The notes beneath the pieces were generated by a model. It worked only from the letters and a program-made list of their open reading frames with translations. It made no database searches and had not been told where the DNA came from. DNA of 34,457 bases, from positions 1 through 34,457 of the IMG/VR virus record IMGVR_UViG_2908572912_000001; one strand, written 5' to 3'. Below are positions 1,917 to 33,088 of this stretch, piece after piece. Position numbers and translations under genes: made by a program. This stretch comes from a virus (taxonomy: Duplodnaviria > Heunggongvirae > Uroviricota > Caudoviricetes). How positions within the stretch are numbered: position 1 is the stretch's first letter; every line of letters begins with the position of its first letter.

Positions 1917-2202
1917 GTGAGTCACCTCTGACTGAGAGTTTACTCACTTAGCCGCGTGTCCACTATTGCTGGGTAAGATCAATTTCACCTTTATCCCGCC
2001 CCTTAGACAGAATGTTATAATCTGAACCCACAACAGCGTTTGTACCGGAGCTGGTCCGTTGCAAAATGCTCACCGGGAGAATTCAGATATTCCCTCTATC
2101 ACACTCTGTACATATCACAGCCAAAGGACAGACCAGATTGAAGTGGTAAAACCGATCGTGCACACTACGCAGTCTCACAACTAACAAGAGGTTATTATCC
2201 TG

Positions 2203-4596: not shown

Positions 4597-5718
4597 TTAG
4601 TCATCAACCGCGACTCCTGCACAATCATGGGCTATTGCCAGCAATTGTTTTTTAATTGCTTTAGCATCTACCGTCATATCTACTGTAGCAAAATGGATCT
4701 TATGTCCCTGAGTGACAACATACTCATTAAGCATATAGCCAACAGCTGGATGAAGTAGAAGACCAGCGGCATTGAGCGAAAGCGGATCCGTCTTGTTCTC
4801 CTGTGTTCTAAGGTAGGTATATAGCTGATAAATATAGCCATTACGTAGTGATTGCTCCCGATGCCAACCCTTTGTCAGAATCGAATTAAATTTGGTATCG
4901 ATAATAATACGCCGCTGGGCAGTCTTGTGTTCCAGAATAATGTCTGACTTCATTGTCGGGAAAATCTCTGCACTACCTGCACTTTGATCGCTCAACGCCC
5001 ATTTCAGCTCTTTCCCTGCAGAGACCTGCCAAGTTGTTTTGGCAAGGTGTACACGATATAAGCCAGCGATACCTTTTTCAAATAGTCTTCTCATCCAGTA
5101 AAGGTTATTTGAGGGCGCAGGTAAAAGATATTGGCCTTGATCTTCGGTCGGCATCAGCAGTTCAAAAGCTAATCGTGCGGCATCGACCATCGGTTTATCT
5201 GCGGCATCATGGCGTCCAAAACGCCACACTGAGGGTAATTCGTGGGGGGCAGGATATCCTCCATTTATCCCCTCACGGCGAAGTGATATTGCCATAAAAT
5301 GGCAATCTGCCGCCAAAGACGGTTTCACTATGATTGAGGCCAGACGTTCTAACGCACAGCGAACATAGCGATTTCGGGGGGTGTTGAGGGTTATGTCTTG
5401 AAAATGGCAGGCAACCTGTCCCCGTTCCAGTAGTTGATGACTGGCAGTATACAGTATGTCAATGCGCCCTCTCACCCGGTTCAGGGCCGCATGACAAGTT
5501 TGGTATCCCATATTTAAATTGCGACGTCGGCGCAGCGTAATCTCATGAAGGAGGATTGTCGCCACCAGGTCGGGGATTTCTGCTGGGTTATCTTCTACTG
5601 CGATCTGATTGCGCCCTAACTGACGAAACAGATCTGAAGCGTACAGCATCAGCATCCAGATATTTCGCATGGGAATACGTGATGCTGTATGTTGCTCACT
5701 CCCGGTTATTGTCGTCAT
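4597..5718 (-). CDS. mcrC: McrC-like endonuclease subunit (PD-(D/E)xK) of a McrBC-type modification-dependent restriction system
   Basis: N-terminal IPMRNIWMLMLYA resembles McrC IPVRNIYYMLTYAW; C-terminal IIIDTKF...NGYIYQLYTYL matches the McrC nuclease motif (VDAKY...NLYQLMNYL). 4-bp overlap with upstream mcrB-like gene. Confidence 0.8.
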   Translation of the reverse strand: MTTITGSEQHTASRIPMRNIWMLMLYASDLFRQLGRNQIAVEDNPAEIPDLVATILLHEITLRRRRNLNMGYQTCHAALNRVRGRIDILYTASHQLLERGQVACHFQDITLNTPRNRYVRCALERLASIIVKPSLAADCHFMAISLRREGINGGYPAPHELPSVWRFGRHDAADKPMVDAARLAFELLMPTEDQGQYLLPAPSNNLYWMRRLFEKGIAGLYRVHLAKTTWQVSAGKELKWALSDQSAGSAEIFPTMKSDIILEHKTAQRRIIIDTKFNSILTKGWHREQSLRNGYIYQLYTYLRTQENKTDPLSLNAAGLLLHPAVGYMLNEYVVTQGHKIHFATVDMTVDAKAIKKQLLAIAHDCAGVAVDD

Positions 5719-8737: not shown

Positions 8738-9826
8738 ATGAAGAAGGTAAAATCAATTCACTATTTGCGAGGTGTAGCAGCATTACTCGTTGTTGCATAT
8801 CACAATAAACAATACCTAAATGAAGTTTACGCACAAAAAGATCTAGGTGATTTATTGTTTATTAGTGGTGGTTTTGGGGTTGATCTGTTTTTTATTATAA
8901 GTGGATTTATAATAATGTTATCGAGTCAAAAAAAAGAAACAAATTCCCCTATTAACTTTATGACCAGGCGTTTTTTCAGGATTTACCCTGTATTTTTCAT
9001 TTGCACAATCTTATTCTTTTTATTGAACCCAGTCTTCACCGAAAGTGAATTATTGCGTTCATTGTTTCTGCTTCACCTGGACTATTATTCAGAAGCGCCA
9101 TTCTTCGGATACAACGTGCTTTATCCAGCATGGACATTAACCTTTGAAGTCTATTTTTATTTCATTTTTATGCTTGCAATATCGCTGAGTCATAAAAACA
9201 GATTATTAATATCAGTTATTGCATTGATAGTCCCGCTACTTCTCATACAGTTGAAATTTTCCAACAGCCTTTCTCTATCAAGTAAGTTTACGATTGGTGA
9301 TACAGGTCATTGGCATATTGGCTTTCTAAACTTAATGTCATCACCCATGCTGTTAGAATTCGTTTATGGGATGTTTCTGTATATAATACACAGAAAATTT
9401 AAATATATAAAAAACGCAAAGGCGATATCATTCCTTTTGGTTTCATTTGGTGTTTGCTCATATTTTTATCAATTCAGATTTGGTCATGGCCCTTTAAACT
9501 TCGGATTGTGGGCAGCCTCCATAATTACGGGAGTTTTACTTTATGAAGTTAACTTCGGATTAAGGGAAAATAAAATACTCAGTAAGCTAGGTGATATCTC
9601 TTACTCTCTGTATTTATCCCATGCGATAGTAATGCTATTTTTAATTAATTTTAAGGATTTCATTCCGCTTTATGAAAAACCTGGGTTCTCTAAGTTTTCA
9701 TTCATTATTGCTCTTAGCTTGTTCTTATCATTCTTTATTTATAAATATATTGAAACTCCATTCATTAATATCGGAAAAACAATATCCAAAAGACTTTCAA
9801 AACCAACATTAACTTATAGCGAATAG
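8738..9826 (+). CDS. Acyltransferase family 3 integral membrane protein (OafA/Oac-like O-acyltransferase), AT-rich cargo gene
   Basis: 362 aa, about 10 hydrophobic segments, N-terminal YLRGVAALLVVAYH and FFIISGF motifs typical of acyltransferase-3; very low GC relative to neighbours. Confidence 0.75.
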   Translation: MKKVKSIHYLRGVAALLVVAYHNKQYLNEVYAQKDLGDLLFISGGFGVDLFFIISGFIIMLSSQKKETNSPINFMTRRFFRIYPVFFICTILFFLLNPVFTESELLRSLFLLHLDYYSEAPFFGYNVLYPAWTLTFEVYFYFIFMLAISLSHKNRLLISVIALIVPLLLIQLKFSNSLSLSSKFTIGDTGHWHIGFLNLMSSPMLLEFVYGMFLYIIHRKFKYIKNAKAISFLLVSFGVCSYFYQFRFGHGPLNFGLWAASIITGVLLYEVNFGLRENKILSKLGDISYSLYLSHAIVMLFLINFKDFIPLYEKPGFSKFSFIIALSLFLSFFIYKYIETPFINIGKTISKRLSKPTLTYSE

Positions 9827-10533: not shown

Positions 10534-13310
10534 TCAACGAATACTGATGCCGGAAGCAGCCTTTTTGGTCACAATCACCGTACAGTCGGTGATATTGCCT
10601 GCCCCCTGATTGCCTTTCTGGAAAATCTTAAACTCCAGAGTGACGCTTCCCCTGCCACTCGGCATATCAATAACCGCACTGTAACTACCGGGAATGGCCC
10701 CTTTAGTTTCTCTGGATGCGATTAATACGCCGTTTTTGCGAACTTCAAAACCATACCCCGTGTACCTTGTACCTCCCGGGTTATCACCACTTCCCGGATC
10801 GTCATACGCTATACCGTTAAAGATAATGGGCGGAATAATGATTTGACGGTCAAAGTTATGATCATCGCTGATGGTGACTGTAACCGTCCCGTCTGGTGTT
10901 TCCGTGTTACCCCACGTACCAGCCTTTTTCGGGAATGATTTGGATACTGTTTTAACAAAATCACCTCTGACCTGATTCGCCTCCAGCATACCCTTAATCG
11001 TACAGTTTTCATTTATCGTGACGTTGTTGAGCGTCCCGGCGTTCGCATTCACACTGCCACTGATATCCGCATTTTTAGCGGTCAGCTTTCCGTCCGGTGT
11101 CAGGGAAAATACCGGTGGATTTCCACCACTGGTAATGGTGGGGGCCGTCAGGCGTTTGAGGAACACGTCGTTCATGAATATCTGGTTGCCCTGCGCCACA
11201 AACATCGGCGTTTCATTCCCGTTTGCCGGGTCAATAAACGCGATACGATTGGCGGCAACCAGAAACTGGCTCAGTTTGCCTTCCTCTGTATCCTCCATGC
11301 TGAGGCCAAGCCCCGCGACATAATGCTTACCGTCTTCGGTCTGCTCAATTTTGACGCCCCACATGGCATTCCATTTATCGTTGGCGTCCTTCCACTCTTT
11401 CGAAAACTCCTCCAGTCTGCTGGCGTTATCCTCCGTCAGCTCGACTTTTTCCAGCAGCTCCTTGCCGAGATGGGATTCGGTTATCTTGCCTTTGAAAAAA
11501 TCCAGGTAACCTTCCGCATCATCGCTCGCCCGACCAACGGCTTCCACGAATGCCGATTTGCCAACGGTGTTCACACTGCGGATATAAAAGTAATAATCAT
11601 GGCCCGGTTTGATATTGATACTGGCGGCTATCCAGTACAGCGCCGTACCAAGATAGCGGGCTGTGGTTTCAACCTGCCTGATATCGGTAATCCGCTTTTC
11701 CGAGAACCAGAACTCAAACTGTACCGTCGGGTCATAAACGGCAAGATGCGGCGTGGCGGTTATCTGAAAATAGCCCGGCGTCAGCTCAATCCTCGACGGT
11801 GTTGCCGGTGCGGCAATCCGGAACGATACCGACGCCGGATCGCCCTGCTGTCCCCACGCATTTACCGCCCGGACTGTCAGCGTGTACCGCCCCAGCGCCA
11901 GTTGCGTGAAGCGGTATGTGGTTTCCGTCGTCCGGGCCGTGCTGACCAGCCGCTCACTGCCGTCATCCGCTGCCACGGTCAGGCGAAGCATAAAGCTCAC
12001 CCCCTTCACCACCTTCGGCGTGTCCCAGCGCGCCAGCACCTGATATTCCCCGCTGTCTGCGGTGACTTCGGCAGTCAGGTGCTGCACCGCTGGCGGCGTG
12101 ACACCATTCACCGTGCCGCTCTGGTCGCCGTCAAAGTGCGCCCCGTTATCCACGATGGCCTCTTTTTCCGGTACATGCTGCACGGCGGTGATGGCATACG
12201 TGCCGTCATCGTTCTCACGGATACTCACGCAGCGGAACAGACGCTGGCGCAGCGTCGGCAGCTTCAGCCCCCATACGCTGTATCCGGCAACGCCGTCAGG
12301 AACACGGCTCACTTTTACCTTCACGCCGTCGGTGACGGACTGGACCTCCACGCTGACCGGATTGCCACTTCCGTCAACCAGGCTTATCAGCGTGGTACCG
12401 GAGGATGGCAGCGTGATTTCACGGTCAAGCGTCAGCGTCCGGGTCTGGCTGTTCACCGCCAGCACGCGCCCGCCGATGCTGATCCCCGCATAGTCATCAT
12501 CGCAGATTTCAATAACATCACCCGGCACATGGCGAAGCCCTTCGGCACCCACGCTGAAATCCACGGTCTGCGTCTCCAGCAGCTCCGTTTTAATCAGCCA
12601 CAGCCCGGCGCGGTGTGCCTGCCCCCGGCTGGTACAGCCAAAGGCATCCATCTTCGTGACGTTACGACCGTAACGGGCAATGGCCTGCGTGTCCTCCACA
12701 AGCTCTGTCGCCGTCTCCCAGCCGTTATCCGGGTCAATCCAGTTCACCTCAACGGCATTATGGCGGTCCTTCAGGGCGCTGAAGCTGTAGCGGAACGGCG
12801 CGCCATCATCCGGCATCACCACATTACTGCGGTTATAGGTCCACACCTTATCTGATGGTCGGTCCTGCACGAACGTCAGCGTCTGCCCGTTCCATACCGG
12901 CATACAGCGCATCGCCGAGCAGAAATCACTGAGCACATCCCACGCCTTGCGCTGTGTGGTCAGGTACGCATTACAGGTGATGCGCGGCTCCGTGCCGCCA
13001 AAGCCGTCCGGCACTGACTGGTCGCAGTACTGGCCGATGACATACAGCGCCCATTTATCCACATCCGCCGCACCAAGACGTTTCCCCATGCCGTAGCGCG
13101 GATGGGTCAGCATATCCCACAGACACCAGGCCATGTTGTTGCTGTACGCTGGCCTGAACGTTCCGTCCCAGATACCGCTGTATTGCCGCGTCTGCGGGTT
13201 ATAATTCGACGGCACCTGCAGAATACGCCCGCGCAGATGATAATTACGGCTCACCTGCTGGCTGCCGAACTGCTCCGAGTCCACCTGCACGCCGACCAGT
13301 GCCGTGTTCG
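10534..13310 (-). pseudogene. J: Tail tip/host-specificity protein J, C-terminal ~918 codons only (N-terminal ~200 codons deleted)
   Basis: Translation matches lambda J from ...[19 protein letters not shown] to the C-terminal receptor-binding region; no ATG start, upstream sequence is nu1 in another frame. Confidence 0.9.
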
Positions 13311-20459: not shown

Positions 20460-21074
20460 CTAACGTTGTTTAATAACATTCTGACGCAAATGTGGCAATA
20501 CTCGACTCCACTTATCATCCTGCCACGGCTGGAATTTTACATGTGCCGTTTCTCTGGCGAGGATTGCTCGCGCTCTGGTGAGTATCTGGGGATATTCTTG
20601 CTCGATGGAAGTGAAGCGACCAGCTTCACGATGCTCCGCAACCTGAAGAAGAGGAGTAACGTTCTGGCAGGCGGTTAACATCGCATCCCCAGCTCGCCAT
20701 AACCAAGCAAGTGTGCAAAGTTCGTTATCAGTGAATTGTTTTGTGATCGGGGATTGTTGAACTTCTCGATCGAGAATATCCAGAACCCAGCGGCGGAACT
20801 CTTTGGCTACAGGAGTTCGTGCAAACATGGCGATCAAATGGGCTCCGCGAAGGCTAAATACTCGAGACTCCTGCATTCCACGAGGGGTGGTCACTTTGAC
20901 CACCCTTGTCATCATATCTGTAAATTCATCTGAGTGACGGGAGTAAATGCGCTGAACTGCTTTATCGTCCGCATATTCCAGAGCTAAACCAACTTCAGTG
21001 GCAGTAAGCCAAATTCTGTTATTGTGGCAAATTGGGGTAAACGTCGTTTTGTGGAATGCTAATTGAGTAGTCAT
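20460..21074 (-). CDS. Bro-N domain DNA-binding protein (Roi/antirepressor-like)
   Basis: N-terminal ...ICHNNRIWLTATEVGLALEYADDKAVQRIYSRHSDEF... fits the Bro-N fold pattern; sits in the nin region like HK022 roi. Confidence 0.65.
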   Translation of the reverse strand: MTTQLAFHKTTFTPICHNNRIWLTATEVGLALEYADDKAVQRIYSRHSDEFTDMMTRVVKVTTPRGMQESRVFSLRGAHLIAMFARTPVAKEFRRWVLDILDREVQQSPITKQFTDNELCTLAWLWRAGDAMLTACQNVTPLLQVAEHREAGRFTSIEQEYPQILTRARAILARETAHVKFQPWQDDKWSRVLPHLRQNVIKQR

Positions 21075-21685: not shown

Positions 21686-23581
21686 TTAATTATTTTTCTT
21701 TAACTTGAAATTTCTTCCCATTGCTAGTGTTCTTCGAAGATTCGAATCATAAGCTGGTTGATAATATCTATCATAAAAATCCTTAATTGTCTGATGGTAA
21801 GTATCCAGCATCAAACCATAAAACCCCATGACCTTAAGATAATCCACCAAGGGAAATAAATAATCATCAGTCTGAACATCAGTATCAATATTATTTTTTT
21901 GTTTTTTAACTTCAAATTTGTATAAGTTTAACTCACCCTTATCCATCGTGCATGAAAAAAGGTCGTCAAAAATCAAATCAATTTTTGTCATAGGAACTCG
22001 TTCTTTTCCAGACATTATAGGTAGAATATCAATACCTAAGAGCGAACCTAATACAAAGTCGTAATGAAGCGAAATCACTGAGTCATTCGATGTCGAGTTG
22101 CCTTTGATAAATACTCTACTTAGTGCCGAGTCAAAAACATTCTCAACTCTCTCTCTCGTCATGTTTGCGACATCTACAACCCCCATATCACGAGAAGCTT
22201 TTATTGTGATTTCATCTATAAATGCTTTGGAATCTAGTGAATGTAAAAACAACATGAAGTTATCTAACTGTTCAGAGCATTTAATAGCCACCATAAGATT
22301 TTCGTATATATCTTTTTTATACTCAATCGGTAAATTTGCTACCGCAAAAGCAGCATAAAATTCTTGCACTGATTTATGCAGAAAAACATACCTATTATTT
22401 CCCTCAGGTTGGATAAGGCAAGTTATCTCAATAAGATCATCTATAAAGTTTGATGCATCTTCTTTAAGATAACCTTCTGTTTCAATAGCATCTTCAGCAT
22501 ATCTAAGCAACTCCTCTCCCCAAAACTCAAATTTCTCCTCAATCAGTGCGTTATAGCAAATAGCTGAAAAACACAATTTAGCTTTTTCACCAATAATGTT
22601 TGATTTTTTCTCGCGCGTATATACTTTTATTTTATCATGCCTTGCATATAAGGTGTCAAAGAGGCTTCGATAAAACTCTATTATATTATTTGGAATATCA
22701 TTCATATAAGGATAACAATAATACAAAAGAGTAACTAAAATTGGATTGCAAATAGTTCCCTCAAGTTCTTCTTTATCACATAGTAAATCCGCCAAGACTT
22801 TAAACGAGGCATCACTACTTGAGAATCTGTCATTTTTCGATAAAGAATGAAGAATACAAATCTTATCAGAAATATTTAGCTTATCTATAAAAATATTATA
22901 CACATCAGTAGTATAACATATATCTGTATTTGGTCTCGTTGTTGCGATAATTGGTGTGTTAAAATGATAATGAATGTTTTTTATTTCATTCATCATCATA
23001 GTTCGCTCTTCATGTTTAACCTCATCAAATCCATCCAACATTAAAACGACTCTTTGGGATTGCAGTAATATTTTCAAGCTATCCTCTGAACACCCCACAC
23101 CAAATGAATTAAGAATGTCTGCCAGATAAGCAATAATATTTGCATTCTTCACCCTTCTTAATTCAATAAAAAAAGGCATCCGTTCTGATTTTTTTATTTC
23201 CTCGCTAAACAACTTGCGTAAAATAGTACTTTTCCCTTGCCCCGCTATACCGACTATATTTACAATACCATGAAATGGTAAAGTGACCCCATCTTTTATA
23301 ACGACCTTGTCTTTATTAGATGCCACCTCAACAGTTAACGGATAATAAATATCATCTAAAAAAATATCATAATCAGCGTTGTGCAAAGTTCTCATTTTCA
23401 GAGATGGTAGCACATGCTTTCTTAAATAATTTTCTCTTCCGAGGGGATCATTTAATTGTTCGAGTATAACCTTGCCTTCATCTAGGTCCCTAGCCCAAGG
23501 TTTAGAGAGCAATACTTCTGTTATTTTTTCCGCAGCTTTTCCTACTGTGCTATTAATAATAGTCGCAAGAAACTCATCCAT
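21686..23581 (-). CDS. NACHT-family STAND NTPase (bacterial NLR-like), candidate antiphage protein; ~110-aa N-terminal region, central NACHT, ~350-aa C-terminal region
   Basis: Walker A GIAGQGKST, NACHT-type Walker B VVLMLDGFDEV, sensor-1-like IIATTRP; GC ~30 percent island. Start placed at ATG (MDEFL...) preceded by GGTGA; track alt-start gives 23638. Confidence 0.8.
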   Translation of the reverse strand: MDEFLATIINSTVGKAAEKITEVLLSKPWARDLDEGKVILEQLNDPLGRENYLRKHVLPSLKMRTLHNADYDIFLDDIYYPLTVEVASNKDKVVIKDGVTLPFHGIVNIVGIAGQGKSTILRKLFSEEIKKSERMPFFIELRRVKNANIIAYLADILNSFGVGCSEDSLKILLQSQRVVLMLDGFDEVKHEERTMMMNEIKNIHYHFNTPIIATTRPNTDICYTTDVYNIFIDKLNISDKICILHSLSKNDRFSSSDASFKVLADLLCDKEELEGTICNPILVTLLYYCYPYMNDIPNNIIEFYRSLFDTLYARHDKIKVYTREKKSNIIGEKAKLCFSAICYNALIEEKFEFWGEELLRYAEDAIETEGYLKEDASNFIDDLIEITCLIQPEGNNRYVFLHKSVQEFYAAFAVANLPIEYKKDIYENLMVAIKCSEQLDNFMLFLHSLDSKAFIDEITIKASRDMGVVDVANMTRERVENVFDSALSRVFIKGNSTSNDSVISLHYDFVLGSLLGIDILPIMSGKERVPMTKIDLIFDDLFSCTMDKGELNLYKFEVKKQKNNIDTDVQTDDYLFPLVDYLKVMGFYGLMLDTYHQTIKDFYDRYYQPAYDSNLRRTLAMGRNFKLKKNN

Positions 23582-23968
23582 TTTTTCACCACATTCATTA
23601 ACCAATACGTGGTGCATTCTTACAAGACTCAGTAACAATTGTCAATCATAGGTTTTCGCATGATTGCAAAACGCCATAAACAATTGTAGCACCATAATTT
23701 TAAACACTATAAATATACAACCTTCCTACAAGCATTCAGTACATCGCTTAATCACAGGGCTTGAATATATAGTAAGGAATCGATATTAATCACCTCATCT
23801 ACTTTAAACATCTTACACACCTATAATTTATAATAGTCAACACGAGGTCATCATATTAAACATGCAATTACAAACATTCATTTTTATATAAATTTTCATG
23901 ATTTAACCGTAGAGCGACGGTAATAAATTTCATATACAAGGATTTAAGCTCCCATACGTTTTCTATTA

Positions 23969-24148
23969 TTAAAAATAACATACCGTTCGCCAGACCTTAC
24001 CATCAATGACCAGGATTCCTGCCCGCGCCATTTTTGCCGCAGCCTGATTTATGCTGGTTAATGTCACACCTGTTGTCGCAGCAACGTCCGGCGCACAGAA
24101 GCTCTTGTGCGTCCCCAGGTAATGAATAATTGCTTCTTTTCCCGTCAT
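23969..24148 (-). pseudogene. ren: ren, 3'-truncated (about 55 Ren-like codons then 4 foreign codons and stop)
   Basis: MTGKEAIIHYLGTHKSFCAPDVAATTGVTLTSINQAAAKMARAGILVIDGKVWRTV matches the lambda Ren N-terminus; ATGA overlap with P stop; homology ends where the AT-rich island begins. Confidence 0.7.
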
Positions 24149-24786
24149 ACACTGGCTCCTTTCAGTCCGAACTTAGCTTTGATTTCTGCAATCTTCGCCA
24201 GAGCCTGTGCACGATTTAGAGGTCTACCGCCCATGACAGGAAGTTGTTTTACTGGTTCAGGTATAGCCTCACCACGGTTAATTCTCGCAGTCATATGGGC
24301 AAGTTCATCGGCAGCCTTGCGCCGTAATTCCGAGTCAGTCAACGCATTAGCCCGCATGTTCTGATACAGGTTGGTAACCAGCCAGTAGTGCGCGTTTGAT
24401 TTCCACGGATAAGACTCTGCGTCCGGATACAGGCCACGCTTCCGGCAATACTCGTAAACCATATCAACCAGCTCGCTGGCGTTTGGCAGTCCGGCGGTAA
24501 CGGATGCTTCTTCCCGGCACCAGGCGACAAACTGCCCGGGTGATGGCAGGAATGGTCGATTCTGCCGACGGGCTACGCGCATTCCTGCGTTAACCTGTTC
24601 CATTGTGGTGATCCCGTTTTCCCGGAAAGCCAGAACCCACTGGCGGCGGATTTCGTTCAGTTCGTTCTGATCCCGGTTAGCCAGGCTCGCAGGGAAAGTT
24701 GCCAGTAACTGTCTGAACACACCGTTGATGATCTGCGCTACCTGCTGTATCTGCTGGTTTAATCTTTCCACCAGTGGCTGAGACAA
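24145..24786 (-). pseudogene. P: Replication protein P with intact C-terminal ~205 residues but disrupted 5' end; no O gene present
   Basis: ...QQVAQIINGVFRQLLATFPASLANRDQNELNEIRRQWVLAFRENGITTMEQ...AKIAEIKAKFGLKGASV matches lambda P; the P-type ATGAAAA start lies 52 nt upstream in a different frame, continuous with the upstream HTH ORF. Confidence 0.8.
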
Positions 24787-25857: not shown

Positions 25858-26997
25858 ATGGCAGCGGTTGAATTTCAATTGTCTAGGAAGATGATTGATT
25901 GGATAGCAAATTCTCAAGGAGTTTCTATCGAAACTCTTGCTGACCAAGTCATGCCCAAAAAGATTAATAAATTTCTTAACGGAGTGGTAAGTAAATCCGC
26001 AGCAGAAAAACTGGCAAAAATTGGAGGAATCCCTTTCGGTTTTTTATTTCTTGAAACGCCACCAACTCCAGCCAAACCCAAGATCCCTGACTTAAGGCAA
26101 GCTATAAATAGCCGTGAGTTAGGAAAAGATTTTTTTGATGTTTACTATGATATAGAATATAAACTTGAGTGGTACAAAGACTATTTAAGAGAAAATGGTA
26201 ATGATGATCCACTCGATTTTATTGGTAAATTTAAATTTAATAGAAAATTAAATTATAAGGTTGTTGCTACAGACATAGCAAACACAATACATTTTGATAT
26301 ACAAAAAGAGATAAAAAATGTCACTTTTGAGAGCTATTTTTCTAAAGTGGCAAAACTAATAGAAGACACTGGCGTATTAGTTTTCAAGAATGGTGTTGTG
26401 GGTAATAATAATAAAAGAAAACTTGACACGCGAGAGTTTCGTGGTTTCTGTATATCTGATAGCGTTGCTCCGATCATTTTTGTAAATAGCTCGGACGCGT
26501 TATCTGCGCAGGTATTTACATTATTTCATGAGGTGGCTCATCTTTGGCTTGGAGTCGATGGAGTCTCTGGGTGGGACACAGAAAAAAACATAGAATCTTT
26601 TTGTAATAAAGTTGCTGCTGAAATCTTAATGCCTGATAATCTCTTCAAATCTTTCTGGCTTAATGCATCCAGCGATAATAATTATTATCGAGTAAAAGAG
26701 GTTTCTAAGTTATTTAAGGTTAGTGATTTCGCTTGTGCAATCAAAGCGTTACAATTAGATTTGATAGAAAGAAACACTTTGGAGATAATTAAAGATCAAG
26801 CTTACAATAAGCCCAAAAAAGAATCCAATGGTGGTTCTTTCTTTAACACATTACCTGTTCGTAACAGTCCAAAACTTACGAATATAATAATTTCCAAAGC
26901 AATGTCTCAACAATTACCATTAAGGGAAGCAGGCGTACTGCTAAATGTAAAAGCAGATACAGTTGTTGAATTTTATAAAAAACGAGAATCTCTATGA
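25858..26997 (+). CDS. HTH domain fused to ImmA/IrrE-family HExxH metallopeptidase (COG2856-like)
   Basis: HEVAHLWLG zinc-binding motif at about residue 215; N-terminal HTH-like segment; GC ~33 percent; located where rexA-rexB sit in lambda. Confidence 0.75.
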   Translation: MAAVEFQLSRKMIDWIANSQGVSIETLADQVMPKKINKFLNGVVSKSAAEKLAKIGGIPFGFLFLETPPTPAKPKIPDLRQAINSRELGKDFFDVYYDIEYKLEWYKDYLRENGNDDPLDFIGKFKFNRKLNYKVVATDIANTIHFDIQKEIKNVTFESYFSKVAKLIEDTGVLVFKNGVVGNNNKRKLDTREFRGFCISDSVAPIIFVNSSDALSAQVFTLFHEVAHLWLGVDGVSGWDTEKNIESFCNKVAAEILMPDNLFKSFWLNASSDNNYYRVKEVSKLFKVSDFACAIKALQLDLIERNTLEIIKDQAYNKPKKESNGGSFFNTLPVRNSPKLTNIIISKAMSQQLPLREAGVLLNVKADTVVEFYKKRESL

Positions 26998-27506
26998 TTC
27001 ATAATGGAAAATTCTTAATTGATAGTAATGTCTTCATAGAGGCAAAAAACTTTGCATATAACTTCAATTATTGCAAAATATTTTGGGATTTTCTTCTCGC
27101 TTTACACATTAATGGTCTGATTTATAGCATTAATGCTGTAAAAAAATAACTATGTGCAAAAGATGATCCATTGTGTAAATGGATTAAAGAAGAGTTACCA
27201 TCATCATTCTTCGAAGATGAGCATAGTTCAATAGAAAATTATGCAAAGTTAATAAATTGGTCAACTAAATTAGATGTTACCGAAAAGGCAAAGTTTGATT
27301 TTGCAAGCCATGAAAAAGCAGATGCTTTTTTAATAGCCCATGCGATGACACATGGATATACTATTATTACCCATGAGAAACCATCCGGTGGCAAACCTAA
27401 AAAAAGAATAATGATCCCGGATGCTGCTGCTTCTCACGGCGTTAAGACATTAACACTATATGAATTTCTTCCAAGATACGCTAGTCATAATTTTTCTTTG
27501 AAATAA
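26994..27506 (+). pseudogene. DUF4411-like PIN-like nuclease gene, translationally coupled (ATGA) to the ImmA gene, interrupted by an in-frame TAA at 27147-27149
   Basis: Codons 1-51 MIHNGKFLIDSNVFIEAKNF... (PIN-like Asp in LIDSN) then TAA, then the same frame continues 118 codons to 27506 (...ADAFLIAHAMTHGYTIITHEKP...). Frame verified codon by codon. Confidence 0.65.
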
Positions 27507-27511: not shown

Positions 27512-27538
27512 CCCGGCCACCGTGCCGGGTTTTCTTTT
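27512..27538 (+). terminator. Rho-independent terminator closing the cI/rex-position operon (cccggc caccgt gccggg + ttttctttt)
   Basis: Perfect 6-bp GC stem and T-run. Confidence 0.7.
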
Positions 27539-27639: not shown

Positions 27640-27710
27640 TATTTAATATCAAAACACATCTAGCAATAGCAATAAGTATTGATATCATCAATAGCAATAG
27701 CTATTATCAC
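27640..27710 (+). promoter_or_regulatory. pL-like promoter with operator repeats: -35 TTGATA (27679-27684), 17-bp spacer tcatcaatagcaatagc, -10 TATTAT (27702-27707); flanking CTAGCAATAGCAATAAG and CAATAGCAATAGCTATT repeats
   Basis: Near-consensus hexamers with 17-bp spacing; same GCAATAGC motif as at oR. Confidence 0.55.
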
Positions 27711-27780
27711 CATGTCGCAACAACACAACGATACGGCAATCACCTGATTCACCGTTGCGATGACCGCTTAGATCCGCAGC

Positions 27781-28191
27781 TTGAATTTCAGCAGGCTCCG
27801 GGGAGTGCGAGGGGTGAAGCGGACGCGTGAACGTCGGTGTGACCAGCTGAAATCAACTCAACACTTCATACCTCAGTCGCTTCAACGAGGCGGCTTAGTT
27901 ATGACAACCGGCGGCCATCCACCGCCTGAATACGCGCAGAAGTCTTTATATGTTCAGCAGCCCAGCTTACGGGCAGGAGTTTTTATGGTTCATCAACATT
28001 ACGGAACGCAGACCGTTAATCGCGGTGCGGTCATGCCAGGAATGCTGGTCAAACACAAAGATGGTACCTGGACTGCATCAGCTAATTTACGCGGACGGCT
28101 TTATCTGCATCGCGGCATCGAGCGCACTTATACCCGTGATTTGCTCGTAGAAGTTTTTCTCGACGGACGCGGTAACGGCCTGAATCACTAA
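27781..28191 (+). CDS. Hypothetical early-left protein; N-terminal Arg-rich stretch (RLRGVRGVKRTRERR) if the TTG start is used; alternative ATG at 27901
   Basis: First ORF after the pL-like promoter, the place of N in lambda; no similarity to lambda N beyond an Arg-rich motif. Confidence 0.35.
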   Translation: MNFSRLRGVRGVKRTRERRCDQLKSTQHFIPQSLQRGGLVMTTGGHPPPEYAQKSLYVQQPSLRAGVFMVHQHYGTQTVNRGAVMPGMLVKHKDGTWTASANLRGRLYLHRGIERTYTRDLLVEVFLDGRGNGLNH

Positions 28192-28267
28192 CCCCTCTTT
28201 CCTGTTTTCCTAATCAGCCTGGCATTTCGCGGGCGATATTTTCACAGCCATTTTCAGGAGTTCAGCC

Positions 28268-28564
28268 ATGAACGCTTATTACATTCAGGATCGTCTTGAG
28301 GCTCAGAGCTGGGCACGTCACTACCAGCAGATCGCCCGTGAAGAGAAAGAGGCAGAACTGGCAGACAACATGGAAAAAGGTCTTCCACAGCACCTGTTTG
28401 AATCACTCTGTATCGATCATTTGCAACGCTGCGGGGCCAGCAAAAAAGCCATTACCCGTGCGTTTGATGACGATGTTGAGTTTCAGGAGCGCATGGCAGA
28501 ACACATCCGGTACATGGTTGAAACCATTGCTCACCACCAGTTTGATATTGATTCAGAGGTATAA
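28268..28564 (+). CDS. gam: Gam (RecBCD inhibitor), short GamS form
   Basis: [54 protein letters not shown]... matches lambda Gam; the long-form N-terminal extension is in a different frame here. Confidence 0.9.
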
Positions 28565-28569
28565 AACGG

Positions 28570-29355
28570 ATGAGTACAGCACTCGCAACGCTGGCAGGGA
28601 AGCTGGCTGAACGTGTCGGCATGGATTCTGTCGACCCACAGGAACTGATCACCACTCTTCGCCAGACGGCATTTAAAGGTGATGCCAGCGATGCGCAGTT
28701 CATCGCATTGTTGATCGTCGCCAACCAGTACGGCCTTAATCCGTGGACGAAAGAAATTTACGCCTTCCCTGATAAGCAGAACGGCATTGTTCCGGTGGTG
28801 GGCGTTGATGGCTGGTCCCGCATCATCAATGAAAACCAGCAGTTTGATGGCATGGACTTTGAGCAGGACAATGAATCCTGTACATGCCGGATTTACCGCA
28901 AGGACCGTAATCATCCGATCTGCGTTACCGAATGGATGGATGAATGCCGCCGCGAACCATTCAAAACCCGCGAAGGCAGAGAAATCACGGGGCCGTGGCA
29001 GTCGCATCCCAAACGGATGTTACGGCATAAAGCCATGATTCAGTGTGCCCGTCTGGCCTTCGGATTTGCTGGTATCTATGACAAGGATGAAGCCGAGCGC
29101 ATTGTCGAAAATACTGCATACACTGCAGAACGTCAGCCAGAACGCGACATCACTCCGGTTAACGATGAAACCATGCAGGAGATTAACACTCTGCTGATCG
29201 CCCTGGATAAAACATGGGATGACGACTTATTGCCGCTCTGTTCCCAGATATTTCGCCGCGACATTCGCGCATCGTCAGAACTGACACAGGCCGAAGCAGT
29301 GAAAGCTCTTGGATTCCTGAAACAGAAAGCCACTGAGCAGAAGGTGGCAGCATGA
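28570..29355 (+). CDS. bet: Bet (Red-beta single-strand annealing recombinase)
   Basis: 261 aa, matches lambda Bet along its full length from memory. Confidence 0.95.
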
Positions 29356-30032
29356 CACCGGACATTATCCTGCAGCGTACCGGGATCGACGTGAGAGCTG
29401 TCGAACAGGGGGATGATGCATGGCACAAATTACGGCTCGGCGTCATCACCGCTTCAGAAGTTCACAACGTGATAGCAAAGCCCCGATCAGGAAAGAAGTG
29501 GCCTGACATGAAAATGTCCTACTTCCACACCCTGCTGGCTGAGGTTTGCACCGGTGTGGCTCTGGAAGTTAACGCTAAAGCGCTGGCCTGGGGAAAACAG
29601 TACGAGAACGACGCCAGAACCCTGTTTGAGTTCACTTCCGGCGTAAATGTTATTGAATCCCCGATCATCTATCGCGACGAAAGTATGCGCACCGCCTGCT
29701 CTCCCGATGGTTTATGCAGTGACGGCAATGGCCTTGAGCTGAAATGCCCGTTTACCTCCCGGGATTTCATGAAGTTCCGGCTCGGTGGTTTCGAGGCCAT
29801 AAAGTCGGCTTACATGGCCCAGGTGCAGTACAGCATGTGGGTGACGCGAAAAGATGCCTGGTACTTTGCCAACTATGACCCGCGTATGAAGCGTGAAGGC
29901 CTGCATTATGTCGTGGTTGAGCGGGATGAAAAGTACATGGCGAGTTTTGACGAGATGGTGCCGGAGTTCATCGAAAAAATGGACGAGGCACTGGCTGAAA
30001 TTGGTTTTGTATTTGGGGAGCAATGGCGATGA
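29352..30032 (+). CDS. exo: Exo (Red-alpha 5'-3' exonuclease)
   Basis: 226 aa, matches lambda Exo along its full length from memory. Confidence 0.95.
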
Positions 30033-30190
30033 AGCATCCTCACGATAATATCCGGGTAGGCACGATCACTTTCGTCTACTCCGTTACAAAGCGAGGCTGG
30101 ATATTTCCCGGCCTTTCTGTTATCCGAAATCCCCTGAAAGCACAGCGGCTGGCTGAGGAGATAAATAATAAACGGGGGCTGTATGACTGA
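30029..30190 (+). CDS. Small lambda-like ORF downstream of exo (53 aa, [53 protein letters not shown])
   Basis: ATGA overlap with exo stop and with the methyltransferase start; lambda carries a similar ORF here. Confidence 0.5.
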
Positions 30191-30740
30191 TTTCACCGGA
30201 AGCAATACTCCTGCCGAACATCGCGACAGCTGGCGCACACCACCAGAGATTTTTGCTGCGCTTAATGCAGAGTTCGTTTTTCAACTTGATGCTGCCGCCA
30301 GCGAAAAAAACCGACTATGTCGGCTTTTTATCTCACAGGAGCAGAACACATTAACCACTTCATGGCCTGAAGCAATGGGATATGCCTCTGGTTATGTCTG
30401 GTTGAATCCACCATACAGCAATATTTCCCCTTTTGTGAAAAAGGCAGCCACTGAAAACAAATTCAGTAGTGTGGGATGTGTAATGTTATTGCCTGCTGAC
30501 ACATCTGTCGGATGGTTTCATGAAGCGATACAAACCGCCAGTGAGGTCAGATTCATCACGGCAGGACGACTGGCATTTATTAACCCACTCACTGAGAAAC
30601 CCGTCAGTGGAAATAATAAAGGCTCGATGCTCATTATCTGGCACCCATACCCCCGTACACACTGCCACTTTACGACCGTTGATCGTGGAGAGTTGATGGC
30701 GTTCGGCTCAAGGATTCTTGCCCGTCGGGAGGCTGCATGA
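30183..30740 (+). CDS. Phage-type orphan DNA N6-adenine methyltransferase (small Dam-like, NPPY motif)
   Basis: 185 aa with motif YVWLNPPYSN (motif IV of amino-methyltransferases) and an upstream FVFQLDAAAS motif-I-like region. Confidence 0.75.
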   Translation: MTDFTGSNTPAEHRDSWRTPPEIFAALNAEFVFQLDAAASEKNRLCRLFISQEQNTLTTSWPEAMGYASGYVWLNPPYSNISPFVKKAATENKFSSVGCVMLLPADTSVGWFHEAIQTASEVRFITAGRLAFINPLTEKPVSGNNKGSMLIIWHPYPRTHCHFTTVDRGELMAFGSRILARREAA

Positions 30741-30820
30741 CAACCACTGAATGCATTTTTCTGGCAGCGGGCTTCATATTCTGTGTGCTTATGCTTGCCG
30801 ACATGGGACTTGTTCAATGA
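30737..30820 (+). CDS. Possible 27-aa hydrophobic peptide (MTTTECIFLAAGFIFCVLMLADMGLVQ), overlapping neighbours by ATGA at both ends
   Basis: Hand translation; single predicted TM helix; coding status unproven. Confidence 0.3.
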   Translation: MTTTECIFLAAGFIFCVLMLADMGLVQ

Positions 30821-31032
30821 CACCTCAGCAAGAAAACGCCCTTCGCAGTATTGCCCGTCAGGCTAATTCTGAAATCAAAAAAGCCAGACAGCAGTTTCCG
30901 GATAAAAACGTCGATGACATTTGCCGTAGCGTACTGAAGAAGCACCGCGAAACGGTAACGCTGATGGGATTCACACCGACTCACTTAAGTCTGGCAATCG
31001 GCATGTTAAACGGCGTCTTTAAGGAACGGTGA
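30817..31032 (+). CDS. Hypothetical protein (71 aa)
   Basis: ORF with ATGA coupling; track alt-start at 30751. Confidence 0.45.
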   Translation: MTPQQENALRSIARQANSEIKKARQQFPDKNVDDICRSVLKKHRETVTLMGFTPTHLSLAIGMLNGVFKER

Positions 31033-31052
31033 ACATGAAAAGCAAAATCATC

Positions 31053-31078
31053 AGGGAGCTACAGGCTCCTTTTTTATT
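31053..31078 (+). terminator. Rho-independent terminator (ggagc tacag gctcc + ttttttatt)
   Basis: GC stem and T-run. Confidence 0.5.
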
Positions 31079-31130
31079 ATTCGCATTCACCCTCAAGCGT
31101 ATTAACCAACAATTCAGGGATTAATGGAAG

Positions 31131-31349
31131 ATGGCAGACATCATTGATTCAGCATCAGAAATCGAAGAATTACAGCGCAATACAGCAATAAAAATGCGTC
31201 GTCTGAACTACCAGACTGTATCTGCCACTCATTGTTGTGAGTGTGGCGATCCGATAGATGAGCGAAGACGCCTGGTCGTTCAGGGTTGTCGGACTTGTGC
31301 AAGTTGCCAGGAGGAGATCGAACTTAAGAACAAACAATGGGGATTGTGA
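31131..31349 (+). CDS. TraR/DksA-family C4 zinc-finger protein
   Basis: 72 aa with CxxC...(17)...CxxC (CCECGDPIDERRRLVVQGCRTCASC). Confidence 0.75.
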   Translation: MADIIDSASEIEELQRNTAIKMRRLNYQTVSATHCCECGDPIDERRRLVVQGCRTCASCQEEIELKNKQWGL

Positions 31350-31396
31350 TGGCCTCAAAGCAGCAAATTTCAACATCGTCCAACTGAGGTGTAAAA

Positions 31397-31636
31397 ATGT
31401 TCAGAATCATTTTTCCTAACACCTGGTACGTCGACCACCACGGCACTCCCTGCAAAATCCTGCGTTCTACCCACAACAAAGTTCACTACATCCGAAAAGG
31501 CAGAACATGTATCGCCAGCATGTTCCGCTTTAATCATGACTTTGAACCTGTGAATAAAGCTGATGCAGATCGAATAGCAGAAGAGATCGAAACGGCAGAA
31601 CACATTAAGAAGTTACGTGCCATACGCAGAAAATAG
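31397..31636 (+). CDS. Hypothetical phage protein (79 aa)
   Basis: ORF only. Confidence 0.45.
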   Translation: MFRIIFPNTWYVDHHGTPCKILRSTHNKVHYIRKGRTCIASMFRFNHDFEPVNKADADRIAEEIETAEHIKKLRAIRRK

Positions 31637-31713
31637 AAAAATTGATAAATTCAATACTGCATTTCTCAGCATGAACCGCCCCGGGTTTCCTGGAGAGTGT
31701 TTTATCTGTGAAC

Positions 31714-32604
31714 TCAGGCTGCCAGATCATCGTTTCCGATGGAAGCATAATAAGCTTTTTCTGCTTCTGCCGGAGGAGTATGGCCCAGCCTTTCCAGCAA
31801 TCGTCGATTGTTATACCAGTCCACCCACGTGAGTGTGGCCAGTTCCACTTCTGCACGGTTTTTCCAGCTCTTACGGTGTATTACCTCCGCTTTGTAAAGG
31901 CCATTGATGCTCTCCGCCATCGCGTTGTCATACGAGTCGCCTGTACTTCCTGTTGATGCCAGTAATCCGGCTTCCTTAAGCCGCTGTGTGTAGGCCAGCG
32001 ATACATACTGAGAACCTTTATCACTGTGATGGACTGTGCCGGACGGTCGACGGGCCCATAACGCCTGCTCCAGAGCATCCAGCACAAATGTCGTTTCCAT
32101 AGACGATGAGACCCGCCACCCCACGATGTATCCGGCAAACACATCAATGATGAACGCCACATAGACGACCCCCTGCCATGTGCTGACGTAAGTAAAATCA
32201 GCCACCCACAACTGGTCAGGACGTTCTGCCACGAACTGACGGTTTACGCGGTCGCCTGCGACAACGGCTTTCCGGCTGATGGTCGTACGGACCTTTTTAC
32301 CCCGGAGAACACCGGCAAGTCCCATAACCGCCATGAGACGTGCCACAGTGCATCTGGCCACTCTGATACCTTCCCGTAACAACTGACGCCAGACTTTACG
32401 CACACCGTATACCTTGTGATTTTCATCGTATACGCGCTGTATCTCTTTCTTCAGCCAGTCATCGCGCTGCGCACGGGCACTGCGTTTATCCGGATGATGT
32501 CGCTGTTGCTGACAGTGGTAATACGTTGACGGGGCAATATGCAGTTCGCTGCATAGCGGTCCGACCCCGTACTGCTCACGCAGCTTATCCAGCAGTGGCA
32601 TCAT
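31714..32604 (-). CDS. IS629-like transposase OrfB (DDE)
   Basis: 296 aa with DDE integrase-core motifs ([19 protein letters not shown]). Confidence 0.9.
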
Positions 32605-32927
32605 TTTTTCCAGAGGCGGTCGAACTCCGCCTTCGCAAAATAAGCGGAAGCCTGGCGAAGGATATCGTTACTGCGGCGCAGTTCACGATTTTCACGTTCC
32701 AGCTCTTTCAGACGCTGACGTTCAGCGGTGGTGAGCCCGCCATCACCGCCTCCGGTATCCCGCTCATGCTGGCGTACCCAGACACGCAGAGTCTCCGGTG
32801 TACAGCCAATCTTTGGGGCAATGGAACAAATTGCCGCCCACTGTGAGTCATATTCGCCCTGACTTTCCAGAACCATACGAATCGCCCTCTGACGGACTTC
32901 GGGGGAAAAACGAGTATTTTTAGTCAT
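32601..32927 (-). CDS. IS629-like transposase OrfA
   Basis: [57 protein letters not shown]... as remembered for IS629/IS1203 OrfA. Confidence 0.9.
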
Positions 32928-33088
32928 CCTGTTTACCTCTTTCTCAGGGAGTTTAGTCTCCAGGATTCCCGGGGCGGTTCAGCATTAAATTTATCTCTAT
33001 GACCAGTCAAGAGATGTACCTGCCATGAGCTTAATATCATGTCAGATATATCGGTCACAAACTCCCTCAGCAGCTAAGAGGAGGACAA

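Follow-up and report, generated by a model that had tools for sequence, protein, structure and literature searches.

A Dam-like methyltransferase cassette and a candidate small coding sequence in the early-left operon of a lambdoid Escherichia coli prophage

A chain of short, overlapping open reading frames around a phage methyltransferase gene raises the question of what the enzyme modifies and when, and whether the 27-aa open reading frame that overlaps its 3′ end is itself translated. The chain lies in a 34,457-nucleotide stretch of DNA that makes up the virus record IMGVR_UViG_2908572912_000001 and is referred to here as the window. We consider it likely that the segment is an early-left operon in which a Dam-like methyltransferase (MTase) cassette occupies the slot of orf63, followed by a translated small open reading frame (sORF) that is coupled to orf61. 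The gene identities, the cassette boundaries, the conservation, the selection pattern and the Shine-Dalgarno strengths were observed, and we infer the timing of expression, the GATC specificity, the coupling, and that the peptide is translated and sits in a membrane.

The segment is the early-left operon of a lambda-like E. coli prophage of an ordinary type, and specifically the promoter-distal part of a pL-type early-left operon, in which gam-bet-exo is followed by the exo-xis genes. Gene identities were derived from Pfam, NCBIfam and PHROG matches, and all features are given on the plus strand unless stated otherwise. The bet gene (28570 to 29355) encodes a RecT-family annealing protein (Pfam RecT, 115.6 bits; 'phage recombination protein Bet' in a 100%-identical RefSeq record), and exo (29352 to 30032) encodes the lambda exonuclease with its YqaJ domain (Pfam YqaJ, 101.5 bits; RefSeq annotation). 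These are followed by a 53-aa orf60a homologue (30029 to 30190), which was identified by its match to DUF1317 (113 bits, profile positions 1-50 of 60), by the lambda ORF and by alignment with cassette-less phages. It has a GGAG Shine-Dalgarno sequence 9 nt upstream, and its 3′ end differs from that of lambda Orf60a in having a G-run one base shorter and the cassette junction. The gene order bet-exo-orf60a-cassette-sORF-orf61-terminator corresponds to the "exo-xis" segment, with orf60a, orf61 and the TraR-like orf73 found downstream of exo in that order; orf63 (DUF1382) was not found between orf60a and orf61, and the MTase cassette lies there instead. At the end of the coupled block, a consensus scan detected a terminator-like hairpin with a T-run (31053 to 31079), and for lambda and phi24B, too, a terminator between orf61 and orf73 has been predicted at the matching position (PMC4195576). 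The next exo-xis gene is the orf73 homologue (31131 to 31349), a TraR/DksA zinc finger protein according to Pfam (zf-dskA_traR) and RefSeq annotation; lambda Orf73 has been described as a TraR homologue (PMC9239242).

At the DNA level the locus is 100% identical to annotated prophages of porcine E. coli, which are located at icd. The host prophage is lambdoid and defective, and in this strain its genes may consequently never come into use in a productive cycle. A search of the plus strand from 27707 to 31800 found no internal promoter-like site. As no promoter of its own was found for the MTase, its expression should depend on the repressed early-left promoter; the enzyme would be silent in the lysogen and, when this promoter fires, would be made together with the Red recombination genes.

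A sequence-only reading of this region had described four genes linked by successive ATGA overlaps. All five open reading frames were recovered where that reading had placed them, and three of the four junctions are indeed ATGA overlaps, namely those between exo and the 53-aa frame (30029-30032), between the MTase and the 27-aa frame (30737-30740), and between the 27-aa and 71-aa frames (30817-30820). The remaining junction, between the 53-aa frame and the MTase, is not an ATGA but an 8-nt overlap (ATGACTGA), with the MTase ATG at 30183 and the 53-aa stop codon at 30188-30190; in 14 of 80 related loci, one extra base in the preceding G-run produces a true ATGA overlap at this position. The chain also extends past the limits first drawn for it, as bet and exo share an ATGA overlap at 29352-29355 and the orf61 stop codon overlaps a GTG (31029-31032). 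Four-base overlaps occur 11 times on the plus strand and 13 times on the minus strand among the mechanically called open reading frames of the window, five of which are overlapped at both ends, and a double-ended 4-nt overlap was rejected as evidence by itself because it is too common among such frames. The junctions of the chain are kept in approximately 250 related loci. It is this conservation of the junctions, together with the substitution pattern described below, which shows coding in the 27-aa frame, that marks the chain as real and beyond chance.

The gene at 30183 to 30740 encodes a 185-aa orphan phage N6-adenine DNA methyltransferase, and the earlier description of an orphan NPPY methyltransferase was borne out in both respects. 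The protein matches PF05869 'Dam' with 190.5 bits (cut-off 28.1) over profile positions 1-168 of 169 and the NCBIfam equivalog TIGR01712 with 165.6 bits (cut-off 97.05). PADLOC calls it an 'orphan methyltransferase' (oMTase, E=8e-32), and the RefSeq name "phage N-6-adenine-methyltransferase" is already in use. The catalytic motif IV, NPPY, was read from the sequence at residues 75-78 (30405 to 30416); N75, P76, P77 and Y78, as well as D36, A38 and A39 of the upstream D-A-A-A motif, are invariant across 28 homologues. Comparison with an 84%-identical homologue gave 95 synonymous and 29 amino-acid-changing codon differences, a pattern of purifying selection; the gene is intact. In a fold model (pLDDT 77) the nearest structure is the N6-adenine MTase domain of PCIF1; the Foldseek matches indicate only a generic N6-MTase Rossmann fold, with PCIF1 the best at a TM of ~0.6, and a sequence search found no solved structure for the MTase. 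With regard to its orphan status, no restriction gene adjoins the MTase. Its neighbors (exo, DUF1317, orf61, the TraR-like gene and DUF4222) are all recognised lambda exo-xis genes, and the window contains no restriction-like genes other than a McrBC-like pair, methylation-dependent and 23 kb away. The MTase is an uncharacterised member of a well-known orphan Dam-like type that annotation pipelines have already named.

The closest characterised relatives of the MTase are M.EcoVT2Dam (47% identity) and T1 Dam (45%). The VT2 enzyme is reported to methylate GATC (PMC6602927), as are T1 Dam and M.Btr190III, a PF05869-family member that is 35% identical to T1 Dam and for which off-target activity was seen (PMC4996451). 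By analogy, the MTase most likely methylates the GATC sites of replicating phage DNA and would be a second Dam, an extrapolation over 45-47% identity. The sequence-only reading had proposed instead that the enzyme writes a novel m6A motif and serves mainly to protect phage DNA from host restriction. Such a role agrees with an orphan, phage-borne enzyme whose place in an early operon would let it act before packaging, with an identity of 47% that leaves room for altered specificity, and with the finding that MTases of prophages frequently stay silent during lysogeny and become active once the prophage is induced (PMC5778455, PMC4659465). A new motif is nevertheless unlikely because all characterised family members named in the literature consulted target GATC, and the 185-aa, single-domain protein has no separate target-recognition domain to swap.

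The host bears on this question as well. The Dam methyltransferase of E. coli itself already methylates GATC. E. coli hosts are Dam+, so GATC protection would add little against the restriction systems of E. coli, and an anti-restriction role of the MTase is plausible but would be narrow in a Dam+ host. Comparing lysogen methylomes in the presence and absence of the gene would probably tell little, because expression is expected to be tied to the repressed early-left promoter and because host Dam would mask GATC methylation. The copy of the MTase in the DLP12 prophage of BL21 has a truncated N-terminus, which makes the E. coli B methylome uninformative as a natural test. GATC occurs 90 times in the window (~131-137 expected) and 17 times in the operon (16-23 expected), counts that do not separate the hypotheses.

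A reading of the MTase as an adenine methyltransferase of the M.EcoGII or Hia5 kind, promiscuous or without specificity, is very improbable, even though those enzymes too are orphans carried by prophages and kept silent during lysogeny (PMC5778455, PMC3299994) and M.Btr190III, of the same family as the MTase, methylates off-target (PMC4996451). M.EcoGII belongs to the beta class and is 349 aa long, with DPPY in its N-terminal part and FxGxG in its C-terminal part (PMC5778455), whereas the 185-aa MTase has D-A-A-A before NPPY and matches PF05869 only. The MTase does not have the arrangement of the M.EcoGII type (~350 aa, N-terminal DPPY, central recognition domain, C-terminal FxGxG; PMC5778455), and kinship with M.EcoGII, Hia5 or M.EcoMIV was rejected because these enzymes belong to different families (PMC5778455, PMC3299994, PMC4659465).

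Alignment with cassette-less phages demonstrated that the MTase replaces lambda orf63 exactly, from the start codon to the stop/start overlap. The cassette-specific DNA comprises 30186-30736 and is flanked by a shared ATG and a shared ATGA, so that the swap would have been bounded by the shared start codon (CTGTATG) on one side and the shared ATGA stop/start overlap on the other. Because these limits are exact, the newcomer gene would inherit the translational coupling of the operon. The MTase-for-orf63 arrangement is present in 243 of 5426 complete E. coli genomes, and in a survey of ~184 loci the slot held orf63 in 159, the MTase in 18 and a DndB-like gene in 1, with constant flanks. The slot between orf60a and orf61 can be viewed as a site of clean gene-for-gene cassette exchange, with a start codon and a stop/start overlap as its limits, in which orf63, a methyltransferase or a DndB-like gene is carried depending on the phage and the cargo is swapped with the translational coupling presumably left undisturbed.

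The sORF (30737 to 30820) would encode a hydrophobic 27-aa peptide (MTTTECIFLAAGFIFCVLMLADMGLVQ) with a predicted single transmembrane helix (Kyte-Doolittle 19-residue window maximum 2.33, GRAVY 1.62) and has an ATGA overlap at both ends. It is preceded by a GGGAGG Shine-Dalgarno sequence within the 3′ end of the MTase gene (30727 to 30732), whose predicted anti-SD duplex of -10.3 kcal/mol is the strongest of the chain; the background of the window has a mean of -1.9 and a 5th percentile of -6.2. Among 247 loci, 22 distinct variants were observed, 16 synonymous and 6 non-synonymous (P=1.4e-6; expected synonymous share 23%), and 17 of the 22 fall at codon position 3 (P=3e-5), in a shallow sample of 20 haplotypes that are at least 90% identical and with variants counted as distinct states, which are not phylogenetically independent events. 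Purifying selection was detected in the frame of the sORF and not in the alternative sense and antisense frames, and the length of the peptide is invariant in all loci except one. A 31-aa open reading frame just downstream, used as a negative control, lacks codon periodicity. In its pattern of substitution, the sORF evolves like a real protein-coding gene.

Two other sources of this conservation were rejected. An antisense open reading frame at 30670-30804, whose third positions coincide with those of the sORF, has synonymous and non-synonymous variants in equal number (7 each), contains a stop codon in the consensus sequence and ends in a C-terminus that varies with the cassette, and an RNA structure or known RNA family received no support (z=0.12, no Rfam match). 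The sORF is probably translated because of the synonymous bias, the strongest Shine-Dalgarno sequence of the chain and the predicted transmembrane helix, and its product would most likely be a single-helix membrane peptide. The hydrophobic frame noticed in the sequence-only reading is missing from the RefSeq and lambda annotations and carries a coding signature, but calling it unannotatable by size filters was an overstatement, as UniRef and some of the GenBank records contain the exact peptide under the name 'hypothetical protein'. A literature search for the peptide found no paper, and a review of lambda ribosome profiling lists extra 7-aa and 31-aa peptides in the region and no 27-aa one (PMC8614690).

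The sORF overlaps a longer form of orf61, and the same DNA could be read differently: the sORF would be untranslated, and the stretch would be the 5′ portion of a 93-aa orf61 with its start at 30751. This frame is open, it is annotated in many phage records and in PHROG 303, and in Escherichia sp. E1V33 the coupled ATG lies in the 93-aa frame. The 93-aa start was rejected, and we regard this reading as quite improbable: the frame has 2 synonymous versus 13 non-synonymous variants, its start has no Shine-Dalgarno sequence (-1.5 kcal/mol), one locus carries AAG in place of the ATG, the Met of the 71-aa form is where orthologues from other genera start, and published models of residues 1-23 are structurally inconsistent between methods (PMC8614690). 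The full-length 71-aa form (30817 to 31032) is favored by its substitution pattern (21 synonymous and 4 non-synonymous variants) and by the starts of its orthologues, and orf61 matches PHROG 303; in Enterobacter-type phages the orthologues have the same Met start and are ATGA-coupled directly to the MTase. The copy of orf61 in lambda itself is frameshifted by an extra A in an A-run, and the copy here is intact. The Shine-Dalgarno sequence of the 71-aa start is weak (-3.9 kcal/mol), and orf61 translation for this reason probably depends on coupling to the sORF; ribosomes that end at the sORF TGA would probably re-initiate at the overlapping ATG of orf61.

The sORF could also be translated as a coupling spacer only, which delivers ribosomes to orf61 and yields a peptide without a function of its own. 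The ATGA at both of its ends, the weak orf61 Shine-Dalgarno sequence, the relatives that couple the MTase directly to orf61 and the removal of the sORF by one natural deletion are all consistent with this reading. A pure spacer, however, would not conserve amino acids, which is at odds with the excess of synonymous variants and with a peptide length that is constant in all loci but one, and we hold the spacer reading to be improbable. The natural deletion is one of 14 nt in Escherichia sp. E1V33, which fuses the sORF start codon to the orf61 frame and implies that at least one naturally occurring locus can do without the sORF.

The sORF is not part of the MTase cassette and belongs to the conserved right flank of lambda and most E. 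coli lambdoid prophages. It is 100% identical in lambda, where it lies at 30925-31008 on the complement within the annotated 'orf61', and it lies likewise inside 'orf61' of phi24B. It is present in 3137 of 5426 complete E. coli genomes without RefSeq annotation, and it is absent from Enterobacter/Klebsiella-type relatives. A scan of genome contigs for divergent homologues of the sORF returned mostly lambda-DNA contaminants of unrelated assemblies. It is possible, though we advance this only tentatively, that the sORF is a genuine unrecognised gene of lambda and most E. coli lambdoid prophages for a membrane-inserted peptide. RefSeq would then have missed a coding sequence that lambda and over half of the complete E. 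coli genomes carry and that overlaps the mis-annotated 5′ part of 'orf61'. If so, the orf61 deletions in the literature, which were assayed for lysogenisation, induction and survival (PMC6213356), and the ribosome footprints assigned to orf61 would partly or wholly reflect the sORF peptide, and the peptide may play a part in the pro-lytic effects that have been attributed to the exo-xis region. Translation of the sORF would mean that orf61 genetics in lambda and Shiga-toxin phages needs to be re-read, and would add a new small membrane protein to the lysis-lysogeny region of clinically relevant Stx phages. The new point here is the sORF coding signature only; overall, the system is ordinary and the insight a modest one of annotation.

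Among known systems, the lambda exo-xis region (orf60a-orf63-orf61-orf73-ea22) has the same gene order, with flanks of ~97% DNA identity, an identical sORF and the same terminator after orf61 (PMC8614690, PMC4195576). It differs in carrying orf63 where the MTase is located here, in the C-terminus of orf60a and in its frameshifted orf61. M.EcoVT2Dam, the product of orf32 of the Stx2 phage VT2-Sakai, whose gene is also found in 933W-type Stx phages, belongs to PF05869 like the MTase and is 47% identical to it over 178 residues. Both enzymes are orphan and borne by lambdoid prophages (175 aa versus 185 aa), and the M.EcoVT2Dam gene also has 4-nt overlaps with both of its neighbors; it is flanked by ninB and ninE in the nin region, which belongs to the rightward operon, whereas the MTase is in the leftward exo-xis region in place of orf63. 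T1 Dam (M.EcoT1Dam), of the same family, has the NPPY and D-A-A-A motifs, but at 237 aa it is the longer protein, extended at its N-terminus and carrying an internal insertion, and it comes from a virulent phage; the T1-like phage methyltransferases of Enterobacter and Erwinia siphoviruses are 62-75% identical to the MTase. M.EcoGII and Hia5 are prophage-encoded orphan m6A enzymes that stay silent in the lysogen and are believed to come into play when the prophage is induced (PMC5778455, PMC3299994). No sequence relationship between them and the MTase was detected, and M.EcoGII differs from the MTase in family and architecture (beta-class, 349 aa, DPPY).

All five open reading frames (ORFs) that a sequence-only reading had placed in a translationally coupled chain were found on the + strand of the window: exo (29352-30032), the 53-aa orf60a homologue (30029-30190; DUF1317 in Pfam), the 185-aa NPPY protein matched by PF05869 (MTase, 30183-30740), a 27-aa ORF (sORF, 30737-30820), and the 71-aa orf61 (30817-31032). 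The successive ATGA links proposed for them were present at 30029, 30737 and 30817, but the junction of the 53-aa ORF and MTase is an 8-nt overlap (ATGACTGA). Further junctions lie outside that chain: a bet/exo ATGA at 29352-29355 and a GTG at 31029 that overlaps the orf61 stop. A length polymorphism in the G-run before MTase (30171-30190 in the window; also loci L220, L224, L240 and others) toggles the position of the orf60a stop, and the last residues of Orf60a differ with it (KRGLYD vs KRGAV). The 8-nt overlap is found in at least 45 loci as well as the window, while one additional base in 14 of 80 related loci shifts the frame and creates a true 4-nt ATGA overlap. Since 4-base overlaps are frequent among the mechanically called ORFs of the window (11 on the + strand and 13 on the - strand, with 5 ORFs overlapped at both ends), they are by themselves weak proof of a chain, and the case for one rests on conservation and selection as read from the sequences. 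Overall, the earlier observation was largely right and its interpretation half right.

Positions 30000-31100 are 100% identical to the icd-adjacent prophages of porcine E. coli CV839-06 and ETEC1747, in which RefSeq lists, in order, Gam, Bet, lambda exonuclease, a DUF1317 protein, a phage N-6-adenine-methyltransferase, a 71-aa hypothetical protein, a TraR/DksA regulator, DUF4222, an excisionase and an integrase. The Pfam domains (RecT, YqaJ, DUF1317, PF05869, zf-dskA_traR and DUF4222) concur with these names, and neither MTase nor the coupled operon is unusual or new to annotation. In the lambda literature this is the exo-xis region (orf60a, orf63, orf61, orf73, ea22) of the pL transcript (PMC8614690, PMC4195576). 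The coupled block ends at a terminator-like hairpin followed by a T-run (31053-31071, +, consensus scan), and a terminator has been predicted at the same spot in lambda and phi24B (PMC4195576). From 27707 to 31800, the scan gave no promoter-like sites on the + strand; the sole + strand match, at 27679-27707 between kil and a terminator-like hairpin 3′ of the immunity genes, is a candidate early-left promoter on weak evidence, as the total of promoter matches equals the shuffle expectation.

The 27-aa sORF had been described as tiny and hydrophobic, and it is strongly so (19-residue window 2.33, GRAVY 1.62). A 104-nt segment carrying it occurs in 3137 of 5426 complete E. coli genomes (4255 copies), and in phage lambda an identical but unannotated copy lies inside the annotated orf61 (NC_001416 30925-31008, complement; 3426-3509, -, in locus L005). 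RefSeq annotates only the neighbouring genes at the E. coli loci. The view that size filters make the sORF unannotatable agrees with this absence from the RefSeq and lambda annotations but goes too far, as a few GenBank records carry the exact peptide, which is encoded on 981 contigs, as a "hypothetical protein", and UniRef has an entry for it. A literature search returned no mention of the peptide.

To describe selection on the sORF, 247 loci with 20 haplotypes were compared, giving 22 distinct single-base variants in codons 2-27. Of these, 17 fall on the third codon position (position bias P=3e-5) and 16 are synonymous, compared with an expected 23% (P=1.4e-6). The 71-aa orf61 has the same pattern (21 synonymous, 4 non-synonymous), while the control region 3′ of its stop, which includes a 31-aa ORF, has no periodicity (9 synonymous and 27 non-synonymous in about 160 loci). 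When read in the overlapping 93-aa orf61 frame, which starts at 30751 and is the 5′-extended orf61 of many annotations, the variants are 2 synonymous and 13 non-synonymous, and the ATG is lost in one locus; the antisense frame with coincident third positions gives 7 of each and contains a stop. Both frames were rejected as the coding frame. An RNA-based cause of the conservation was sought, and the fold is not unusual (z=0.12) and matches no Rfam family. The sORF also has the best Shine-Dalgarno sequence in the chain (GGGAGG, -10.3 kcal/mol), compared with none at the 93-aa start (-1.5 kcal/mol) and a weak one at the 71-aa start (-3.9 kcal/mol). We consider it quite likely that the sORF is a translated small membrane peptide, and it probably hands ribosomes to orf61 by termination-reinitiation at the ATGA. 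An essential role is argued against by its absence from Enterobacter-type relatives and by Escherichia sp. E1V33 (L009 1435-1716), where the first codons of the sORF are lost to a 14-nt deletion, so that the coupled ATG is read in phase with orf61 as a 93-aa fusion. The sORF is a credible, widespread, unannotated gene that deserves a re-check by ribosome profiling.

By this reading, translation of orf61 proper begins at 30817 and gives the 71-aa protein. The lambda copy (L005 3340-3525) is frameshifted by one additional A in an A-run (7 vs 6 in the window), and the annotated 61-aa lambda Orf61 is an upstream extension joined to the truncated body of the 71-aa gene. This frameshift would explain why lambda Orf61 has been reviewed as "truncated" and unfolded, and a start at the 71-aa Met would explain why residues 1-23 of the 93-aa phi24B Orf61 model are inconsistent among prediction methods (PMC8614690). 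Published deletions replaced "the nucleotide sequence of orf61" (PMC6213356). Annotated orf61 covers the whole sORF in lambda, and its 93-aa form covers most of the sORF; judging from these annotated extents, the mutants probably lack the sORF peptide as well. NCBI names many 71-aa copies (protein records P0128, P0132 and P0135) "cell division protein ZapA", a name without Pfam or NCBIfam support; the published phi24B model is homeodomain-like (PMC8614690). The terminator hairpin falls within the 31-aa ORF (31029-31124, +), which has its GTG on the orf61 stop and an ATG 6 nt further on. This ORF is possibly the 31-aa "orf2313" that a review lists as detected by lambda ribosome profiling (PMC8614690), and from its variants it does not look constrained as a protein.

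Alignment with MTase-less phages indicates that MTase is a cassette that replaces orf63. Near-identity extends to CTGTATG, whose ATG starts orf63 there and MTase in the window, and restarts at ATGACAACC, whose TGA ends orf63 or MTase and whose ATG begins the sORF. The sORF lies in the conserved right flank, outside the cassette. These boundaries are a tidy case of mosaic exchange. Among approximately 184 loci fetched through orf61, the slot holds orf63 in 159, MTase in 18 and a DndB-like gene in 1, the last being a 355-aa protein of E1V33 (NZ_RHJI01000010.1; L009 371-1438) assigned by eye from its DGQHR motif. The full arrangement with MTase is present in 243 of 5426 complete E. coli genomes and in 1 of 50,697 deposited phage genomes, PhiR30_1. 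In Enterobacter/Klebsiella-type lambdoid phages, an MTase 72-84% identical lies at the same position 3′ of exo with ATGA overlaps to both neighbours, the 3′ neighbour being a 72-aa orf61 homologue with no sORF between. In the cryptic prophage DLP12 of the E. coli B strain BL21(RP), beside intD/argU, an N-terminally truncated MTase copy (L271 2153-2814) is joined to ren, with the sORF segment and a frameshifted orf61 after it.

The prophage copy in the window is degenerate, with a deletion, a premature stop and an insertion before xis. Compared with CV839-06, a deletion of about 1.7 kb (24145-24786, -; 24748-24754) has left a cro-like HTH N-terminus fused to the C-terminal part of P and removed YdaT-like and replication-initiator genes, and the prophage is probably replication-defective. 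Directly 3′ of the S24/HTH repressor, in the position of lambda rexAB, are genes for an ImmA/IrrE-type metallopeptidase, with weak PADLOC CapP and RmrA matches, and a DUF4411 protein (25858-27506, +); the latter, intact in CV839-06, is cut short by a stop at codon 52 and is followed by a terminator-like hairpin (27512-27529). Also relative to CV839-06, the intergenic space that separates xis from the DUF4222 gene has gained a 1.3-kb IS3-family element (31673-32978), presumably IS629-like, with TGAACCGCCCCGGG as its terminal repeats and two - strand ORFs (108 aa and 296 aa; rve, HTH_21). A second IS3-family transposase lies at 754-1925 (-). A 650-aa NACHT-domain NTPase (21686-23638, -), beside a Bro-N/P22 antirepressor-like gene (20460-21074), is a possible anti-phage STAND/NLR-type gene and has no PADLOC match. 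A 362-aa Acyl_transf_3 membrane acyltransferase (8738-9826, +) adjoins the tail genes.

MTase had been called an orphan, which is borne out: all its neighbours are identified and no restriction gene adjoins it. Restriction-like genes in the window are limited to a McrBC-like pair at a distance of 23 kb (4597-7697, -), near the tail-fibre J gene (10534-13290), which encodes a 660-aa protein of McrB type (AAA_5) and a 373-aa partner with the McrBC-component domain (PF10117). The pair is a candidate modification-dependent restriction system and, as far as can be told, unrelated to MTase. Because no promoter of its own was found, MTase should be silent in the lysogen and produced together with Gam, Bet and Exo once the prophage is induced. 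Other prophage methyltransferases are reported to be expressed in a matching way (PMC5778455, PMC4659465). If MTase is a second Dam, then the proposed protection from host restriction would be confined to enzymes blocked by GATC methylation, and a more likely role would be to keep fast-replicating phage DNA fully methylated. Full GATC methylation would put phage DNA beyond MutH and SeqA. Both known lambdoid locations of this family adjoin recombination genes, Red in the window and NinB in Stx phages, which is suggestive, if speculative. Since MTase is probably off in a lysogen, where GATC is already methylated, the proposed methylome comparison with and without the gene would probably show nothing.

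The MTase scores far exceed the curated thresholds of PF05869 and TIGR01712, and the PADLOC orphan-methyltransferase model matches it. The NPPY motif (residues 75-78) and the D-A-A-A of the family are invariant among homologues, the gene is intact in all but 1-2 of 80 loci, and 95 synonymous and 29 amino-acid-changing codon differences separate it from an 84%-identical homologue. A sequence search matched no solved structure. For the AlphaFold model (pLDDT 77, pTM 0.79), the best match was PCIF1/CAPAM, in its N6-adenine methyltransferase domain (E=4e-5, TM 0.56-0.60), which points to a generic N6-MTase core of Rossmann type that lacks a separate recognition domain. A non-specific enzyme of the M.EcoGII type was rejected, as M.EcoGII belongs to a different class (PMC5778455). 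The closest characterised relatives are reported to methylate GATC, so that MTase is likely to have the same specificity: VT2-Sakai orf32 (M.EcoVT2Dam) is 47% identical to it and phage T1 Dam is 45% identical, with GATC methylation reported for both, and GATC is also the target of M.Btr190III, which shares only 35% identity with T1 Dam and has some activity off target (PMC6602927, PMC4996451).
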